Sequence record: OR204651.1
Origin: Escherichia phage pO103
DNA length: 39,837 nucleotides
Strand: one strand, 5' to 3'
A model generated the notes under the pieces. It ran no database searches. It was not told the origin of the DNA and saw only the letters and a list, made by a program, of their open reading frames with translations. A program made the translations under genes and the position numbers. Every line of letters starts with the position of its first letter. Positions within the stretch are counted from its first letter, which is position 1. Below, piece by piece: positions 8,412-36,619 of this stretch.

Positions 8412-8878
8412 TGACTTCTTATGACGCCATGATTATCAAACTTATTAACATGAACGAAGGCAGTCCAGATCATTTGTCTAACTGTTCCTTCCACTGTGCT
8501 GGAGTTCCTTGTAGTATCTGCCCAGCCGGTTATGATGAGGATATGACATTAGGTGAAATCCGAGCGATGGACCCACGTGCTCCCATAATGCCGGAGAAAC
8601 CAGCAGAGGTAGCTCCTACAGAGGACCAACCACAAGATATAGAGGGTGTTCGGACTCCGAGCCACTATATGTTGTTTGACGACATTGAGGCTATCGAAGT
8701 GATTGCTCGTTCGATGACCCGTGAGCAGTTCAAGGGGTACTGCTTAGGGAATATCCTTAAGTATCGCCTGCGTGCTGGTAAGAAATCTGAACTGGCATTC
8801 TTAGAGAAGGACATGGCGAAAGCTGGGTTCTATGGTGAACTGTTCGAGAAACATAAGGACAAGTGCTATGATTATTAA
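8411..8878 (+). CDS. 1.7: Gene 1.7 nucleotide (dNMP) kinase homolog
   Basis: 155 aa; C-terminal region SHYMLFDDIEAIEVIARSMT.EQFKGYC.GNILKYRLRAGKKSELA.LEKD.AKA.FY.ELFEKHKDKCY matches recalled T7 gp1.7. Confidence 0.75.
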   Translation: MTSYDAMIIKLINMNEGSPDHLSNCSFHCAGVPCSICPAGYDEDMTLGEIRAMDPRAPIMPEKPAEVAPTEDQPQDIEGVRTPSHYMLFDDIEAIEVIARSMTREQFKGYCLGNILKYRLRAGKKSELAFLEKDMAKAGFYGELFEKHKDKCYDY

Positions 8879-9041
8879 GGTCGAGTATGTGGGTGAAGAT
8901 GATATAATGGCACTAGTTAAACGCCATGACATATTCTTTGCAGAGCGAACATGGGACGGTAAGTTCTATAAGATCATGAACAAGCATGACGAAGAAGTAT
9001 ATCTTTCACGTAACGAGGTGATTGAATATGACGATGCTTAG
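8868..9041 (+). CDS. Gene 1.8-like hypothetical protein (57 aa)
   Basis: ORF starting MIIKVEYVG, overlaps 1.7 stop; AAGGA RBS. Confidence 0.45.
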   Translation: MIIKVEYVGEDDIMALVKRHDIFFAERTWDGKFYKIMNKHDEEVYLSRNEVIEYDDA

Positions 9042-9132
9042 ACCGAGTGAGTGGTGTGAGCGTATGTTCGAAAAGACGGGAAACGCTGACTACCTCGAAA
9101 TGTACAACCTGTGGAAAGGGAGAGGACAATGA
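9028..9132 (+). CDS. Small ORF (34 aa, [34 protein letters not shown])
   Basis: Strong GAGGTGA RBS 6 nt upstream; stop overlaps gene 2 start (ATGA). Confidence 0.3.
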
Positions 9133-30348: not shown

Positions 30349-33300
30349 GTGGATAAGTATAACCCGAACGAACCGCATGAATATGATGCGTTATTTCAAC
30401 AAGCTGCTGACACACATGGAGTCTCCTACGGCCTTCTTCGGAAGGTCGGTTGGGTAGAGTCCCGATTCAAACCTACGGCCCAATCACAAACAGGGCCACG
30501 AGGTGTCATGCAGTTCACTAAGGCAACTGGTCAGGCTTACGGCCTACAGTCTGATGAGGACTTCAACGACCCGGCTAAGTCTATTGATGCTGGTGCTCGT
30601 TACCTTGCAGACCTCGTTAAGAAGTACAATGGGGATGAACTGAAAGCTGCCCTTGCGTACAACCAAGGCGAGGGCCGAAACGGTAAGCCTCAACTGGAAG
30701 CCTACGACTCCGGTAACTTTGCTGGTATTGGTGATGAAGGACGTAACTATTTGCGCTCACTTCTGGATGTCGCTAAGTCTCCGAAGAGTGGTGACATTGA
30801 GTCATTTGGTGGTATCACCCCAAAGGGTAAAGGGATTCCGTTCGATGCTGCTATGAGTGGTATCGGGAAGAAAGGAAAGGTAACTACAGAACTCCCTGAG
30901 TCTCACTCAATGTCCTTTCAAGGTAAAGAACAGGCCGCTCCCAATCAGCCGTTCGGTAAAGACTATTGGGAAGCAAAAGGAACAACTCTTGACGAAGCCA
31001 ATGAGCGTTCAACCTTCTTCGGATTCGGTAGTGCTGCTGAAGCAGAACTCTCCAACTCAACCTTGGGCGTTGCCTTCCGTGCTGGTAAGCGTGACAATGG
31101 TTTTGATGTGCTCACTGATGTACTTCAACCGACACGGTTTAATAGCCACATTTGGTCGCCTGAAGAACTCGACAAGATTCGCAAAGAAGTGAAGAACCCT
31201 GCGTACATGAACGTTGTACTTGGTGGTTCCGCTGAGAACCTTGATGAGCTAATCAAGTTGGCTAACGAGAACTTCGAGGCTGACGCTAAGGCTGCTGAAG
31301 CTGGACTTGGTGCCAAGCTGTCTGCTGGCCTGATTGGTGCTGGTGTGGACCCGTTGACCTACGTCCCAATCGCAGGGACTACAGCCAAGGGATTCAAGCT
31401 GGTGAACAAGGCACTGATGGTTGGTGCTCAAGCTGGTGCACTCAACGTTGCCTCCGAGGGTCTGCGTACATCCGTTGCTGGTGGTGAGGCTCACTATGCT
31501 GAAGCTGCTCTTGCTGGTATGTTGCTTGCTGGTGGACTCACTGCGGTTGCTGATGGTGTTGCTGCTGGTCTCCGTAAGTCTGGTGCTGAGCAGGTTGAGA
31601 ACCCCTTTGCTGCTGCACAGATGCGCTTTGAGGCTCGTGAGACTGCACGTAACACTGGTGGATATGACGGAAGTCGTATGCCTCCTAGTGAAGACAGAGT
31701 GTTCTCACAGCACAACGGCGTTGAGTATGCTCCTCTCGAAACTGAACCGGGTGCGGTAGTCCTGAAGGATGGCTCAATCATTAGTGATACTAACTTGGCT
31801 AACCCAATGACTGCCAGAGAGTTCGCTGAAGTGGACCCTGAACGTGCTGCTTGGGGATTGCCTATGCGTGGACTAAGTGAAATTGGCTTGAAAACTCTAA
31901 GTTCAGAACACGCTGAAATCCGTGGTCTCGCTAAGGACTTAGTGCGCTCCCCTACAGGTATGGAGTCAGGCTCAAACGGTAAGTTTGGTTCTACTACATC
32001 GGACATCATAGAGAGACTGCGCAGTCTCAACCATCGAACCTACAATAACCTATATGGTGCAATGAAGGAAGCGATGGCTGACCCTGAGTGGTCTGTGGGC
32101 ATGTTCAAGAGTGGTGCTGAAGGTGCCCGTCAACAAATCTATCGTCGTATTAGTGAGGCTATCGAGAGACCTGAACTTCAGGCTAACTTGACCAAGGAAG
32201 AACGTAAGGTGATGGACATCGTGAAGGAACACTATGACCTCAAGCGTGAGATGATGGAGAACCCGTCGATGTTCGGTAACAAGGCCACCTCTATCTTCCC
32301 TAACAGTCGTCACAAAGGGACTTACGTTCCTCATGTGTACTCGCGGGAAGCCAAGCAGTTGTACTCACAGGTTCTTGGTGGCACTGATGGTTTACAGGAA
32401 GCAGTTGCCGCAAGTTTGATGGCATCATATCATGTACGTCCTGAAGTCAAGGCCCGTATTGATGAGTATCTACGTGAGATTCACGCTGATGAGTTCGAGA
32501 AGGCAACCAAAGGTGCACAAGCTGCTGCGGACGCTGAGAACTTCCTGAGAGGTGCTGAGGCTGCTCCGGTAATGCCTGACTCATTGGTGACTGGCGGTAA
32601 CTCAACTAGCATCACTAAGGTCTCTAACGGAGAACTCCAAGGTGATTACTTCGCTGGTAAGCGAGACTACTCTGGTGAGACTCCTTACAAGGTGGATGGT
32701 GATTTTGTCTATTATACAGCTAAGACCGCTGATGGCTCTGAGTTCGCGGTGGATGTGTTCACCAAAAAAGGTGACCACGTGGGTGGCGTGGAGTTTGCTA
32801 AACGTGAGGGCGATGTATGGCATAACCCAAGCCTTGAGGTGTCCGAGAAGTACCGCCGCAAAGGTATCGCTACAGAGATGTACCGCATTGCTGAGACCGA
32901 GAGTCCTGACTATGTGTATCGTGGTACAGACGAATCCGTTGGTGGCGTTCGTACCCCCGATGGTCAAGCATTCCGTAAAGCCTACGACTCCACCCCGGCT
33001 AAACCTTCAGAGCGCCAGAAGTTTGGCACAGGAGAGAAGGTGGAACCAAAGGTAGACGAAGAGGAAATGCTTATCCAGATGGCTGAGGAATACGCCATGA
33101 AAAAGGCATATGGTATTGCAAAGACCGATGAGTTCAACTCTTCAAGTGTCATTGACGATAACATTGAGGGTCTCGTAGGTATTGAGAACAACTCATTCCT
33201 TGAAGCCCGTAACCTATTCGATTCTGATGTACCAATCACTCTACCGAATGGACAACAGTTCTCTGTGAATGACCTCCGTGACTTCGATATGAAGCATGTT

Positions 33301-34860
33301 ATGCCAGCATATGACCGCCGTGTTGATGGTGATATTGCTATCATGGGAGGTACAGGCATGACTACTGCTGAACTCAAGGACGCTATTATGGCTCTTGATA
33401 AGAAGTCTGAAGGTAAAGGCACAATGAAAGGTGAAGTGGAAGCGCTTAAGGATTTCGTTAAGATTGTCACTGGTCGTGCTCGACGTAATCAGGATACTGT
33501 AGGTGACACTATGGTCCGTGCTCTGTCCGATATGTCCTTCTTTACGAAGAACGCATATATGGGCTTGCAGAACCTAACCGAAATCTCCGGTATGTTGCAG
33601 AAGGGTAATATCCGTGCGATGCTTCATGGCATTCCGGTACTGCGTGACTTAGCGTTCCGCAACAAGCCAGTCTCTGGTAGTGAACTCAAAGAACTCCACT
33701 CTATGGTGTTCGGTAAAGAGTTTGATGACTTAGTCCGACCGACTCGTCAAGACATCATTCAGCGACTCCGTGAGTCCACCGATACACCTGATGTTGCTGC
33801 AAAGGTTGTTGGGACCATTAAGCACACAACTCAAGAACTGGCGGCTCGCTCACCTCTGACCAAGTTCCTCAATGGTACGTCAAACTACCTTCTGGACATG
33901 GCCCGGCAGGGTGTGATGGGTGATGTGGTAACTCATGCTATTACTGGCAAGGGTGCCAACAAGTGGATTAAAGGTGACATGCTGAAGTCTGCGAGTATCT
34001 CTAAGGAACAGTGGGAGGGCATTCAGGCTCTCATCCGTGAGAACGTTACCCGTGGGGAAGATGGTAAGTTTACCTTCAAGGACAAGAAGGCTCTGGCTAA
34101 TGACCCTCGTGCTATGGACTTGTGGCGCTTGGCTGACAAGGTTGCTGATGAAACGATGCTTCGACCTCATAAGGTGTCCTTACAGGATTCCCATGCGTTC
34201 GGTGCACCTGCTAAGTTGGTCCTTCAGTTTAAGTCATTCGTAATCAAGTCGATGAACTCTAAGTTTATCCGCTCTGGTCACGAAGCCTTTAAGAACCATC
34301 GTGCTATGGACATGGCGCTGACCTATGCAATCTCTGGTGGTATCGCTGGCTCCTACTATGTGGCACAGGCCCACTTGAAGGCTGCTGGTCTTCCTAAAGA
34401 GCAACAGAATGACTACCTGAAGAAAGCTCTAGACCCGAAGATGATTGCCTACGCAGCGGCCTCCAGAAGTTCACACTTAGGGTCTCCGTTGAGTATCGCT
34501 AACTTCTTTATGGGTGCTGCTGGATACGACCAAGGTCTTATGGTTCGCTCTACGATTCTCCCTAAAGGAGAGGATAAGAAAGAACGGAACAAGGCGGTAA
34601 CTTCTCGTGACATGGGTGATTCCATTATGGGTGCTATTGGTGAACAGGTTCCTGCTCTTGGGTTCGCTGGTGCTACTTTCGCTGCTGGTCGAAATGCTTA
34701 TGGTGTCCTTACGGCTCCAAACAAAGTGACCGAGCGTGAGATGATGACTGGCTTAATGAACGCCCACAGAGAGATGATTCCTAACGACCCACTCTCCCAG
34801 CAAATGCTAATTAAGTTCTATGAGGCCAATGGTGTTCACCTTAAGTCTGACAAGAAGTAA
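30349..34860 (+). CDS. 16: Gene 16 internal virion protein D, N-terminal lytic transglycosylase domain; about 185 aa longer than T7 gp16; GTG start
   Basis: 1503 aa; N-terminus VDKYNPNEPHEYDALFQ with transglycosylase motif GWVESRF; GTG start 6 nt after AGGAGG; C-terminus matches T7 gp16. Confidence 0.95.
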   Translation: MDKYNPNEPHEYDALFQQAADTHGVSYGLLRKVGWVESRFKPTAQSQTGPRGVMQFTKATGQAYGLQSDEDFNDPAKSIDAGARYLADLVKKYNGDELKAALAYNQGEGRNGKPQLEAYDSGNFAGIGDEGRNYLRSLLDVAKSPKSGDIESFGGITPKGKGIPFDAAMSGIGKKGKVTTELPESHSMSFQGKEQAAPNQPFGKDYWEAKGTTLDEANERSTFFGFGSAAEAELSNSTLGVAFRAGKRDNGFDVLTDVLQPTRFNSHIWSPEELDKIRKEVKNPAYMNVVLGGSAENLDELIKLANENFEADAKAAEAGLGAKLSAGLIGAGVDPLTYVPIAGTTAKGFKLVNKALMVGAQAGALNVASEGLRTSVAGGEAHYAEAALAGMLLAGGLTAVADGVAAGLRKSGAEQVENPFAAAQMRFEARETARNTGGYDGSRMPPSEDRVFSQHNGVEYAPLETEPGAVVLKDGSIISDTNLANPMTAREFAEVDPERAAWGLPMRGLSEIGLKTLSSEHAEIRGLAKDLVRSPTGMESGSNGKFGSTTSDIIERLRSLNHRTYNNLYGAMKEAMADPEWSVGMFKSGAEGARQQIYRRISEAIERPELQANLTKEERKVMDIVKEHYDLKREMMENPSMFGNKATSIFPNSRHKGTYVPHVYSREAKQLYSQVLGGTDGLQEAVAASLMASYHVRPEVKARIDEYLREIHADEFEKATKGAQAAADAENFLRGAEAAPVMPDSLVTGGNSTSITKVSNGELQGDYFAGKRDYSGETPYKVDGDFVYYTAKTADGSEFAVDVFTKKGDHVGGVEFAKREGDVWHNPSLEVSEKYRRKGIATEMYRIAETESPDYVYRGTDESVGGVRTPDGQAFRKAYDSTPAKPSERQKFGTGEKVEPKVDEEEMLIQMAEEYAMKKAYGIAKTDEFNSSSVIDDNIEGLVGIENNSFLEARNLFDSDVPITLPNGQQFSVNDLRDFDMKHVMPAYDRRVDGDIAIMGGTGMTTAELKDAIMALDKKSEGKGTMKGEVEALKDFVKIVTGRARRNQDTVGDTMVRALSDMSFFTKNAYMGLQNLTEISGMLQKGNIRAMLHGIPVLRDLAFRNKPVSGSELKELHSMVFGKEFDDLVRPTRQDIIQRLRESTDTPDVAAKVVGTIKHTTQELAARSPLTKFLNGTSNYLLDMARQGVMGDVVTHAITGKGANKWIKGDMLKSASISKEQWEGIQALIRENVTRGEDGKFTFKDKKALANDPRAMDLWRLADKVADETMLRPHKVSLQDSHAFGAPAKLVLQFKSFVIKSMNSKFIRSGHEAFKNHRAMDMALTYAISGGIAGSYYVAQAHLKAAGLPKEQQNDYLKKALDPKMIAYAAASRSSHLGSPLSIANFFMGAAGYDQGLMVRSTILPKGEDKKERNKAVTSRDMGDSIMGAIGEQVPALGFAGATFAAGRNAYGVLTAPNKVTEREMMTGLMNAHREMIPNDPLSQQMLIKFYEANGVHLKSDKK

Positions 34861-34861
34861 T

Positions 34862-34884
34862 CAATACGACTCACTATTGGGAAG
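34862..34884 (+). promoter_or_regulatory. Phage promoter phi17 (CAATACGACTCACTATTGGGAAG)
   Basis: Consensus match; 5-prime hairpin GGGAAG...CTTCCC. Confidence 0.8.
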
Positions 34885-34929
34885 GCTAACACAGCTTCCC
34901 TTTATTATACCCAACTAAGGAGGTACATT

Positions 34930-36399
34930 ATGGCTCTTAATATTCGTACCGTAATGACTTACCCACTTACTGGCGCGGTAGATTTTCCTATCACGTTTGA
35001 GTATCTGGCCCGTAAGTTTGTCACGGTGACTCTCATTGGTAAAGACCGTAAAGAACTGGTTCTAAATCAGGACTTCAGGTTCACCACTAAGACTCAAATC
35101 ACAACTACTCGTGCATGGACTGCTGCTGATGGCTACCAGCTTATCGAGATTCGTCGCTTCACCTCTGCGACTGAACGTCTGGTTGACTTTGCTGATGGCT
35201 CTATCCTTCGTGCATTCGACTTGAACATTTCTCAGATTCAAACACTGCATGTTGCAGAAGAAGCCCGTGACTTAACAGCGGATACAATTGGTGTAAACAA
35301 CGATGGCAACCTAGATGCCCGTGGTCGCCGTATCGTGAACCTAGCGAACGCTGTGGATGATGGTGATGCTCTTTCATTTGGTCAAGTTAAGACCATGAAC
35401 CAGAACTCATGGCAAGCACGCAATGAATCCTTACAGTTCCGCAATGAGGCTGAGACCTTCCGTAACCAAGCGGAGGGCTTTAAGAATGAGTCCGGAACTA
35501 ACGCTACGAATACCTATAAGTGGCGTAATGAGGCTGAGGGGTTCCGTGATGAGGCCGAACAGTTCAAGAACACTGCGACACAACAGGCTACCGATGCTGG
35601 TAACTCTGCGGCTGCTGCTCACCAATCCGAGGTGAACGCTGAGAACTCAGCTACCGCTTCCGCTAACTCTGCTACCTTGGCAGAACAGCAGGCAGACCGT
35701 GCGGAACGTGAAGCAGACAAGTTGGGTAACTGGAATGCTCTTGCAGGGACGATACAAGATGTTTCTGGAGAGGATGTTACTTGGAGAGGAATACAGACAG
35801 CAAAGGGGTTCCAATTGATTGAGGGTGCTAATAAACCATCGTACATAGTTGGACGGGCGGATAACAGTAACTCTTGGTACGTCGGTAAGGGCACTGCAGG
35901 TTCTCCAGAGGTGGCCTTACACAGTTATGACCTCGACACCTCAATTCTCTTAAAAAGTGACCACATTGTATTAAACAAACCGCTAAATGTGAATGGGGAG
36001 GTTAGGACCCTGAACTCCGCATTACAAAACGACGGTGATATACGAGGCGGCAGATGGGGGGGTACACTAGGTGATACCATTCAAAGAAATCGTGTGAATT
36101 ATCAAAGGGTCTTTTCGGGTACGTGGTTGCAAGGTCAAACAGTTACATTCACAGATGCGCCAATAGGACGACAATTCATTATGATAGGAGTCAATACAGG
36201 AGCAGCCATAGAGTATGTATCAGCATGTACGCCAGTCGCTGGGGAAACATTCTGGGTAAATATCGGGAACTGGAGCTACAAAATAGGCACTTCACAGGAT
36301 GGTTGGGGGGCCGTTATACACGCATCACAGGATATCCATGGCGGAGTCCCTGGCGCAATTGCGGAGGTCTACGTTATCAGGACTGATTTAGATAAATAG
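34930..36399 (+). CDS. 17: Gene 17 tail fiber protein; conserved N-terminal domain, divergent C-terminal receptor-binding region
   Basis: 489 aa; first ~270 aa match T7 gp17 (FEYLARKFV, MNQNSWQARNE.LQFRNEAETFRNQAEGFKNES); remainder unlike T7. Confidence 0.95.
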   Translation: MALNIRTVMTYPLTGAVDFPITFEYLARKFVTVTLIGKDRKELVLNQDFRFTTKTQITTTRAWTAADGYQLIEIRRFTSATERLVDFADGSILRAFDLNISQIQTLHVAEEARDLTADTIGVNNDGNLDARGRRIVNLANAVDDGDALSFGQVKTMNQNSWQARNESLQFRNEAETFRNQAEGFKNESGTNATNTYKWRNEAEGFRDEAEQFKNTATQQATDAGNSAAAAHQSEVNAENSATASANSATLAEQQADRAEREADKLGNWNALAGTIQDVSGEDVTWRGIQTAKGFQLIEGANKPSYIVGRADNSNSWYVGKGTAGSPEVALHSYDLDTSILLKSDHIVLNKPLNVNGEVRTLNSALQNDGDIRGGRWGGTLGDTIQRNRVNYQRVFSGTWLQGQTVTFTDAPIGRQFIMIGVNTGAAIEYVSACTPVAGETFWVNIGNWSYKIGTSQDGWGAVIHASQDIHGGVPGAIAEVYVIRTDLDK

Positions 36400-36412
36400 C
36401 ACAGGAGGTCGT

Positions 36413-36619
36413 ATGTTATCTCTAGATTTTAACAATGAGTTAGTCAAGGCTGCACCAATTGCTGGTGTGGCTGGAGCGGATGGTGTGGCTCGTCTCTTTT
36501 GGGGACTGTCACTTAACGAGTGGTTCTACGTAGCCGCAATTGCCTACACAGTGGCTCAAATTGGTGCCAAGGTAGTCGATGTGATTATCAAATGGAAGAA
36601 GGAGGGTAAAGATGTCTGA
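36413..36619 (+). CDS. 17.5: Gene 17.5 holin
   Basis: 68 aa; MLSLDFNNEL.KAAPI...GLSLNEWFYVAAIAYTV.QIGAKVVD matches T7 holin. Confidence 0.9.
   Translation: MLSLDFNNELVKAAPIAGVAGADGVARLFWGLSLNEWFYVAAIAYTVAQIGAKVVDVIIKWKKEGKDV

Follow-up and report, generated by a model that had tools for sequence, protein, structure and literature searches.

Tail fibres of T7-type phages, six per virion, consist of homotrimers of gp17 that bind reversibly to the lipopolysaccharide (LPS) of the host, and T7 itself binds rough LPS. Here we describe gene 17, encoding the tail fibre protein gp17, in a window of 39,837 nucleotides from Escherichia phage pO103 (OR204651.1), a Berlinvirus-like phage of the T7 group: the genome is 89-93% identical over 25 kb to Berlinvirus members such as Shigella phage A7, Yersinia phage WW1, 285P and BA14, pO103 itself being absent from the matches in the phage collection. 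We consider it probable that nucleotides 35749-36399 are the distal half of a T7-type fibre that stems from a distinct T7-group tip allele family and was moved by homologous recombination. This is ordinary tail-fibre module shuffling, a well-understood form of phage mosaicism, and not a recent import from outside; a mildly interesting twist is the family-wide loss of codon bias that starts exactly at a conserved hinge, ADKLGNWNALAG.

According to a passage of PMC7693777, which cites Garcia-Doval and van Raaij (2012), the trimeric tip of T7 gp17 establishes the initial, reversible contact with the surface of the host, and the same source treats it as established that the C-terminal (distal) gp17 domains are passed on horizontally. 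A parallel case of distal-domain exchange, Sxt1 versus T3, is described in an excerpt of PMC11680406. As in these Studiervirinae examples, a conserved N-terminal anchor is joined in pO103 to an exchanged, host-range-altering C-terminus, but the joint of pO103 is situated at the hinge that follows the shaft (aa 262-273), not just behind the anchor of ~150 aa. Unlike in the documented exchanges, the exchanged part of pO103 is itself a mosaic, and its codon break is unusually sharp and family-wide.

Compared with T7 gp17 (PDB 4A0T/4A0U for the C-terminal and 7BOZ/7EY9 for the N-terminal part), the pO103 protein is alike in gene position, in the N-terminal adaptor domain PF03906, which matches the T7 structures 7boz/8dsp, and in the shaft, and the distal order of a pyramid domain followed by a tip is identical. 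However, it is 64 residues shorter and lacks the stretch around T7 residues 295-365 between hinge and pyramid; only 51 of 173 residues are identical in the distal half (20 of 83 in the tip), the codon usage of which is near uniform in pO103 and almost typical in T7. The hosts differ as well, an O103 strain with O-antigen in the case of pO103 versus rough LPS in that of T7. With the T4-type long tail fibre (PF20744 gp37_trimer, PF21446 Gp34_trimer) pO103 shares only the pyramid domain; it has neither a T4-type needle nor a gp38-type adhesin, and its codons fit a T4-like model no better than its own genome. No enzymatic beta-helix or catalytic Pfam domain typical of a tailspike or depolymerase follows the T7-type anchor, the distal part being composed of the pyramid and a small beta-sandwich.

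The sequence-only reading of this DNA had stated that the N-terminal ~270 residues are conserved with T7, which proved correct: 214 of the residues 1-273 are identical to T7 gp17, and phmmer aligns residues 2-293 with T7 2-294. It had also stated that T7 similarity is lost from about nt 35740. This holds for the DNA, as all megablast matches of gene 17 to T7-group phages end by query position 815-819 (~nt 35748) and a sensitive blastn search with 35740-36399 found no match among 50,697 phage records. Relative to A7, T7, NC-A, pO111, P1338 and Yep_9, DNA similarity stops at 35372-35748 (for A7 at 35372, ~aa 148) and returns at 36401-36414 after the stop codon, and cultured relatives such as A7 have distal fibre halves unrelated to that of pO103. 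For the protein it holds only in part. In a phmmer search against PDB sequences, residues 294-399 align with the C-terminal domain of T7 gp17 (4A0T, 4a0t_A; E = 8.6e-12), and tblastn over the pyramid stretch gave ~30% identity to the gp17 proteins of T7, T3 and 13a, next to 31-35% over ~120 residues to fibres of T-even (Tequatrovirus) and Aeromonas phages. A profile-profile comparison (hhalign) with T7-type C-termini reached 98.5% probability over 155 columns. By these alignments the pyramid of pO103 is homologous to residues 371 to ~464 of T7 gp17 and to T4 gp37_trimer. Given that protein similarity to T7 falls from 78% to ~25-30% identity within the same architecture, the break is not a change of protein type.

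Structure models agreed with this assignment. In an AlphaFold2 (AF2) monomer model of 196 residues, the pyramid part had predicted local distance difference test (pLDDT) values below 50, which is expected for an interdigitated trimer modelled as a monomer, and the Foldseek template modelling scores (TM-scores) of this model are meaningless beyond naming 4A0T/4A0U. When the tip was modelled again alone, an eight-stranded beta-sandwich as in the T7 gp17 tip (4A0T) was obtained; the tip of pO103 is thus predicted to have the T7 tip fold, and its fibre is presumably trimeric.

The sequence-only reading had further reported a switch in codon usage from about nt 35740, and this was fully borne out. 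Of the 42 called plus-strand genes, all except gene 17 served as the codon reference. The seven codons named in that reading were observed 8 times in codons 2-270 of gene 17, where amino-acid composition and the usage elsewhere in the genome predict 15.4, and 38 times in codons 271-489, where they predict 14.8 (z = 6.8), while a codon adaptation index (CAI)-like measure dropped from 0.742 to 0.558 between the two parts. As these seven codons are a list chosen after looking, a log-likelihood score conditioned on the amino acid, log P(codon given amino acid), was added for all genes long enough. Among 5514 windows of 219 codons, none was as atypical as 35740-36396 (z = -8.7); outside gene 17, no window of this size fell below z = -2.5. 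The best two-segment change points fell at codons 268-273 (nt 35731-35746), and codon usage of the N-terminal domain and shaft is typical for the genome.

The shift concerns mainly A at the third position (0.16 to 0.31), i.e. the signal is synonymous. The overall GC content of the distal segment (0.464 versus 0.484 for the genome) lies within one standard deviation (SD) of the genome windows, so a GC plot alone would not reveal the break, and GC content was rejected as an explanation of the codon anomaly. We also compared the codons of the module with a few reference sets, namely T7, a T4-like phage and E. coli gene sets. The fit per codon was best for a uniform model (-1.157), followed by weakly expressed E. 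coli genes (-1.277), the own genome (-1.302), T4-like phage (-1.312), T7 (-1.340) and ribosomal genes (-1.884). No identifiable donor type among these sets matches the module, and since the uniform model fits best, no type of donor genome is indicated; a T4-like donor in particular was rejected on codon grounds. The module is therefore distinguished by the absence of bias and not by a recognisable foreign bias. Codon usage in the distal half of T7 gene 17 is nearly typical, and along that gene it is nearly uniform. The distal half of A7 gene 17 (L001, 22409-24274) has no DNA similarity to that of pO103, and its codons are atypical from about codon 252 through codon 551 (z -1.5 to -4.5 per 50 codons); a codon break of this kind may be widespread among the mobile distal modules of Berlinviruses.

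An exhaustive HMMER search of 1.84 billion representatives with the module returned one full-length match, P0001, a T7-type gp17 of 568 aa with 62% identity, and 38 further matches covering part of the query, mostly the pyramid (27-45% identity). With full-length P0001 as the query, P0043-P0054 were obtained, which are 490-611 aa long, have this tip family in common and come from sequencing-run and metagenome assemblies, plus one protein of a metagenome-assembled genome (MAG; P0053, 'MAG TPA'). At least 13 metagenomic gp17 clusters have the pO103 tip family, 12 of them with the pyramid and one on another stalk, and pO103 is the only member tied by look-ups to a named, cultured phage. A word-index search with the C-terminal 224 aa alone or with a two-sequence alignment gave nothing, but this was a false negative and no evidence of rarity: the missed relatives had 50-80% identity and were in the same collection, so index negatives on short, divergent queries are not readable as absence. 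Scans of viral, metagenome and genome contigs brought up no closer relative: they gave either nothing or relatives of the pyramid domain alone, at 40-42% identity. All full-length matches of the module are T7-group gp17s; neither the HMMER search nor these scans placed any of the closest relatives outside the T7 group.

The family alignment contains two or three N-terminal types, T7-like (MANVIKTVLTYQL) and Berlinvirus-like (MANKISTVRTYPL or MALKLRTVMTYPL), combined with a common shaft, the nearly invariant hinge, the pyramid and the tip. A Gp34_trimer-type domain (PF21446) of ~80 residues is present in the long members P0045-P0048 and P0001 and is missing in pO103, P0050 and P0051-P0053; P0050-P0053 are accordingly short like pO103, and P0050 has a junction identical to that of pO103, while P0049 is short too but retains part of the intermediate region. 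In pO103 the junction links the hinge straight to the pyramid. Many members of this metagenomic family (P0001, P0043-P0054; contigs L012-L018) thus differ from pO103 by the extra PF21446 domain, by another shaft (P0048) or by another stalk (P0054), and none exceeds ~85% DNA identity to the pyramid and tip of pO103. In P0048 (611 aa), the distal half is as in the long members and a longer alanine/arginine-rich shaft replaces the T7-like one; the shaft, too, appears to be an exchangeable module. In P0054 (523 aa, alignment columns 330-480) the tip is the same but sits on another stalk, and the pyramid is missing; family similarity begins at LNVNGEVRTLNSALQNDGDIRGG, a hint of a second site of exchange, located between pyramid and tip at ~36000-36050.

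Six carriers of the family were read at the DNA level (L012, L013, L014, L016, L017 and L018), with 49-76% amino-acid identity to pO103 in the tip. The backbone of L013 is 90% identical to T7 and those of L012 and L018 75-78%, while the backbones of L014, L016 and L017 are 88-91% identical to pO103. As the tip family occurs on both T7-like and Berlinvirus-like backbones, it is exchanged horizontally. All six share the hinge and the codon anomaly of pO103: downstream of the hinge, codons are atypical against the other genes of the same contig (z -2.7 to -11.5), the listed rare codons occur 36-51 times versus 13-23 expected, and third-position A amounts to 0.27-0.31 versus 0.17-0.20, whereas the part of the gene upstream of the hinge is typical. 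The carrier modules are ~58-85% identical in DNA, with the tip down to 58%. Since the modules diverge from one another by 15-40% in DNA and share the anomaly nevertheless, it is an old trait, stable within the family, and no sign of recency. The C-terminal half thus does occur in T7-group relatives with the same codon bias, and the earlier inference of a recent event from codon usage finds no support in the six carriers or in the synonymous divergence (dS) of the tip, which is 0.33 versus 0.14-0.45 in the flanks. Nor is a foreign origin supported, since the module comprises a divergent T7-type pyramid and tip whose full-length matches all belong to the T7 group.

The regional comparison with three carriers (Table 1), together with windows of 60 nt, is direct evidence that a crossover took place at the hinge, the point of the codon change, and that the module is mosaic internally as well. 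In these windows, pO103 is 97-100% L016-like until ~35720 and 95-100% L012-like from 35700 to 35880 (~150 nt), although the L012 backbone is far from pO103 (62% for the 3' end of gp16 and 70% for the fibre N-domain). Beyond 35880 the best relative reaches 83-93% per 60-nt window. The proposed recent swap of a foreign tip therefore stands in so far as there is a recombination joint, near 35720-35745, from L016-like to L012-like sequence; foreign origin and recency do not.

Table 1. DNA identity of regions in and around pO103 gene 17 to the corresponding regions of three carrier contigs
Region	L016	L012	L013
gp16 3' end	95.4%	61.9%	63.6%
Shaft	96.8%	93.9%	90.7%
aa 274-294	68.8%	100%	96.9%
Pyramid	79.5%	80.2%	82.6%
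Tip	79.6%	62.2%	85.3%
Holin + terS	94.2%	71.6%	78.4%

Nei-Gojobori estimates of dS and non-synonymous divergence (dN) were calculated for pO103 versus L016, its closest backbone relative. Values of dS/dN were 0.33/0.225 for the tip and 0.73/0.199 for junction plus pyramid, as compared to 0.45/0.046 for gp15, 0.30/0.093 for gp16, 0.28/0.013 for holin, 0.30/0.000 for terS, 0.14/0.017 for Rz and 0.21/0.014 for terL. At silent sites the tip is neither younger nor older than the backbone, but its amino acids change many times faster than in most flanks; the dS of junction plus pyramid is consistent with a recombinant patch.

These data bear on several other explanations. A recent capture from outside the T7 group, with the codons as the un-ameliorated signature of a donor, would be the strong version of the sequence-only reading, and we regard it as highly improbable. 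Although the codon anomaly is extreme, blastn found no counterpart in the phage records, the Pfam domain is named after T4 gp37, T-even fibres give weak tblastn matches and the third-position A of 0.31 is near that of T4-like phage (0.29), the module is matched over its full length by T7-group gp17s alone, while other proteins cover only the pyramid at 27-45% identity. The predicted tip fold is that of T7 gp17, the T4-like codon likelihood is no better than that of the own genome and worse than the uniform model, the anomaly persists in six carriers with modules down to 58% identical in the tip, and the tip dS versus L016 equals that of the backbone. The opposite view, that there was no recent swap and that module and Berlinvirus-like backbone share one vertical line of descent, the low identity to L016 merely reflecting faster amino-acid evolution, is very unlikely in our opinion. 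The patch 35700-35880 is 95-100% identical to L012 with its distant backbone and only 67-73% to L016, pO103 lacks the intermediate domain present in L016, and its tip is nearest to the T7-like L013 (85.3%) and not to L016 (79.6%). Vertical inheritance can draw on the tip dS within the flank range together with a raised dN (0.225 versus 0.00-0.09), and on the occurrence of the same family on the related backbones of L014, L016 and L017.

That near-uniform usage from the hinge onwards is kept by selection and not by drift, either as programmed slow translation for chaperone-free trimerisation of the interdigitated pyramid and tip or through constant re-seeding from a pool of phages whose hosts differ in their tRNAs, we judge unlikely; if true, the codon discontinuity would be a general and predictive marker of mobile receptor-binding modules. 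The narrower proposal that rare codons are selected because they slow translation locally and so aid co-translational folding and trimerisation of pyramid and tip seems quite unlikely to us. Conservation of the anomaly in all carriers would speak for it, as would the break within one gene, which excludes expression level as an explanation, and the coincidence of rare codons at conserved R/I/G/T/L sites above independence (e.g. 16 versus 8.5, and 14 versus 8.8 with L013). This coincidence is, however, confounded by shared ancestry, as in most comparisons 68-84% of the codons for conserved residues are the same, and the excess is small with the most distant tips, L012 and L018 (7 versus 4.7 and 4 versus 3.4). 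Moreover, the homologous pyramid and tip of T7 fold without such a bias, and usage is near uniform, with no particular excess of slow codons. Constraint by an overlapping gene in another frame or strand has a negligible probability. Open frames do exist at 36123-36386 on the plus strand (87 aa) and at 35619-35894 on the minus strand (91 aa), but the latter is broken by stops in all six homologous sequences and the former in four (L016, L013, L012 and L018), remaining open in L017 and L014; overlapping reading frames were thus rejected as the cause, their frames not being conserved.

In the explanation that we favour, segment 35749-36399 encodes the receptor-binding distal half of the fibre, in which a short linker leads to a pyramid beta-domain and then to a tip formed by an eight-stranded beta-sandwich. 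The tip allele family passes from one genome to another, Berlinvirus-like or T7-like, through homologous recombination, with crossovers at the hinge, at sites within the module and at the gene end. pO103 is a mosaic of an N-domain and shaft like those of Berlinvirus-like relatives, a patch of ~150 nt as in a short-fibre T7-like phage, and a pyramid and tip without a close relative. In near-uniform codon usage we see an old property, common to the entire module family and probably caused by weak or ineffective selection at synonymous sites in a segment that evolves fast and recombines often, and the trimeric tip should determine host specificity. Of all this, the analysis demonstrates the anatomy, the homology, the fold, the breakpoints of the mosaic and the codon bias throughout the family, while the cause of the bias, the trimeric state and the receptor are inferred.

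Some points weigh against this interpretation. No donor closer than ~85% was found for pyramid plus tip, which leaves room for more than one order and number of exchanges. The dS of junction plus pyramid versus L016 exceeds that of the flanks, so this part may have been replaced rather than inherited. For the tip, the model derives from an alignment of two sequences and was predicted as a monomer. We infer weak selection as the cause of the uniform codon usage, and the coincidence of rare codons at the same sites in relatives, which exceeds expectation, could mean selection for rare codons, although shared ancestry explains it equally well. Finally, the link to the published O103 probe discussed below depends on a title and on accession numbers.

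According to two reviews (PMC11891642, PMC13433624), pO103-ORF42 served Chen et al. 2023 (Anal Chem 95:18407) as a specific probe for E. coli O103 that did not cross-react with strains of non-target O-antigens; the reviews thereby report O103-specific binding by the recombinant fibre protein. ORF42 is presumably gp17 of pO103, given that the title of Chen et al. says 'tail fiber protein' and that no other tail-fibre gene is present in the examined part of the window; the consecutive accession numbers of pO103 and pO111 are consistent with this. The receptor of pO103 may be the O-antigen or some other structure linked to the serogroup. The cassette that this T7-like phage, directed at O103, uses for host recognition and that can be exchanged is hereby delimited to within a few codons (35749-36399), in a tip family otherwise seen only in metagenome or sequencing-run assemblies and one MAG protein. 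Its natural joints, the hinge and the stop codon, are usable for fibre swapping and probe design. A sharp codon break in a tail-fibre gene correctly marked the mobile module and its joint here; alone, such a break neither dates the transfer nor proves an origin outside the group, since the bias can be a stable trait of a module family.

The features of the locus are listed in Table 2. Gene 17, whose product is annotated as 'non-contractile tail fiber protein [Escherichia phage pO103]', is flanked by gp16 (SLT domain) on one side and by a class II holin gene on the other, in an order collinear with the annotation of A7 and T7. T7 annotation places promoter phi17 at the position equivalent to the promoter motif of pO103, and the motif (25-36 nt) is also found at other intergenic sites of phage A7. 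The shaft we take to be a coiled coil, as in T7 gp17.

Table 2. Coordinates of gene 17 of phage pO103, its parts and its borders in the window
Feature	Position	Strand	Evidence
T7-type late promoter, phi17 equivalent, AATACGACTCACTATTGGGAAGG	34863..34885	+	consensus only; 45 nt upstream of gene 17
Gene 17, tail fibre protein gp17, 489 aa, WMM35705.1	34930..36399	+	open reading frame (ORF); exact protein look-up; Pfam PF03906 and PF20744
N-terminal tail-attachment domain Phage_T7_tail, aa 1-161	34930..35412	+	PF03906, E = 2.2e-54, full profile coverage
T7-like shaft, aa 162-273, ending in the hinge	35413..35748	+	106/125 residues identical to T7 150-274
Conserved hinge ADKLGNWNALAG, aa 262-273	35713-35748	+	nearly invariant in 14 aligned fibres
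5' recombination joint and codon-usage change point	35720..35748	+	60-nt identity switch from L016 (98-100%) to L012 (100%); similarity to all cultured comparators gone by 35725-35748; change point 35731-35746
Short-fibre junction patch, L012-like, aa 274 to ~317	35749..35880	+	95-100% to L012, 67-73% to L016
Pyramid-type beta domain, aa 294 to ~389	35809..36096	+	PF20744, E = 5.2e-15, aa 300-379
Tip domain, predicted eight-stranded beta-sandwich, presumed receptor-binding surface, aa 390-484	36097..36381	+	tip model
Stop codon and 13-nt spacer with gene 17.5 ribosome-binding site; 3' boundary of the variable module	36397..36412	+	backbone similarity resumes at 36401-36414

Outside gene 17, gp16 (30349-34860) of pO103 has 1503 aa versus 1318 aa in T7. 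Its variable middle contains at aa 795-851 (~32731-32901) a borderline match to a GNAT acetyltransferase (E = 5.5e-4, 20.6 bits versus a cut-off of 20.7), and the alignment of the pO103 and A7 gp16 sequences breaks near 32507-32550, where A7 has ~385 extra bases. In the T7-like contig L012, which carries P0050, a gene of the Endonuclease_7 family is located at 8630-9055 between an Rz-like gene and the next one, a position at which pO103 has no ORF; it is possibly a homing endonuclease near the fibre and packaging region.

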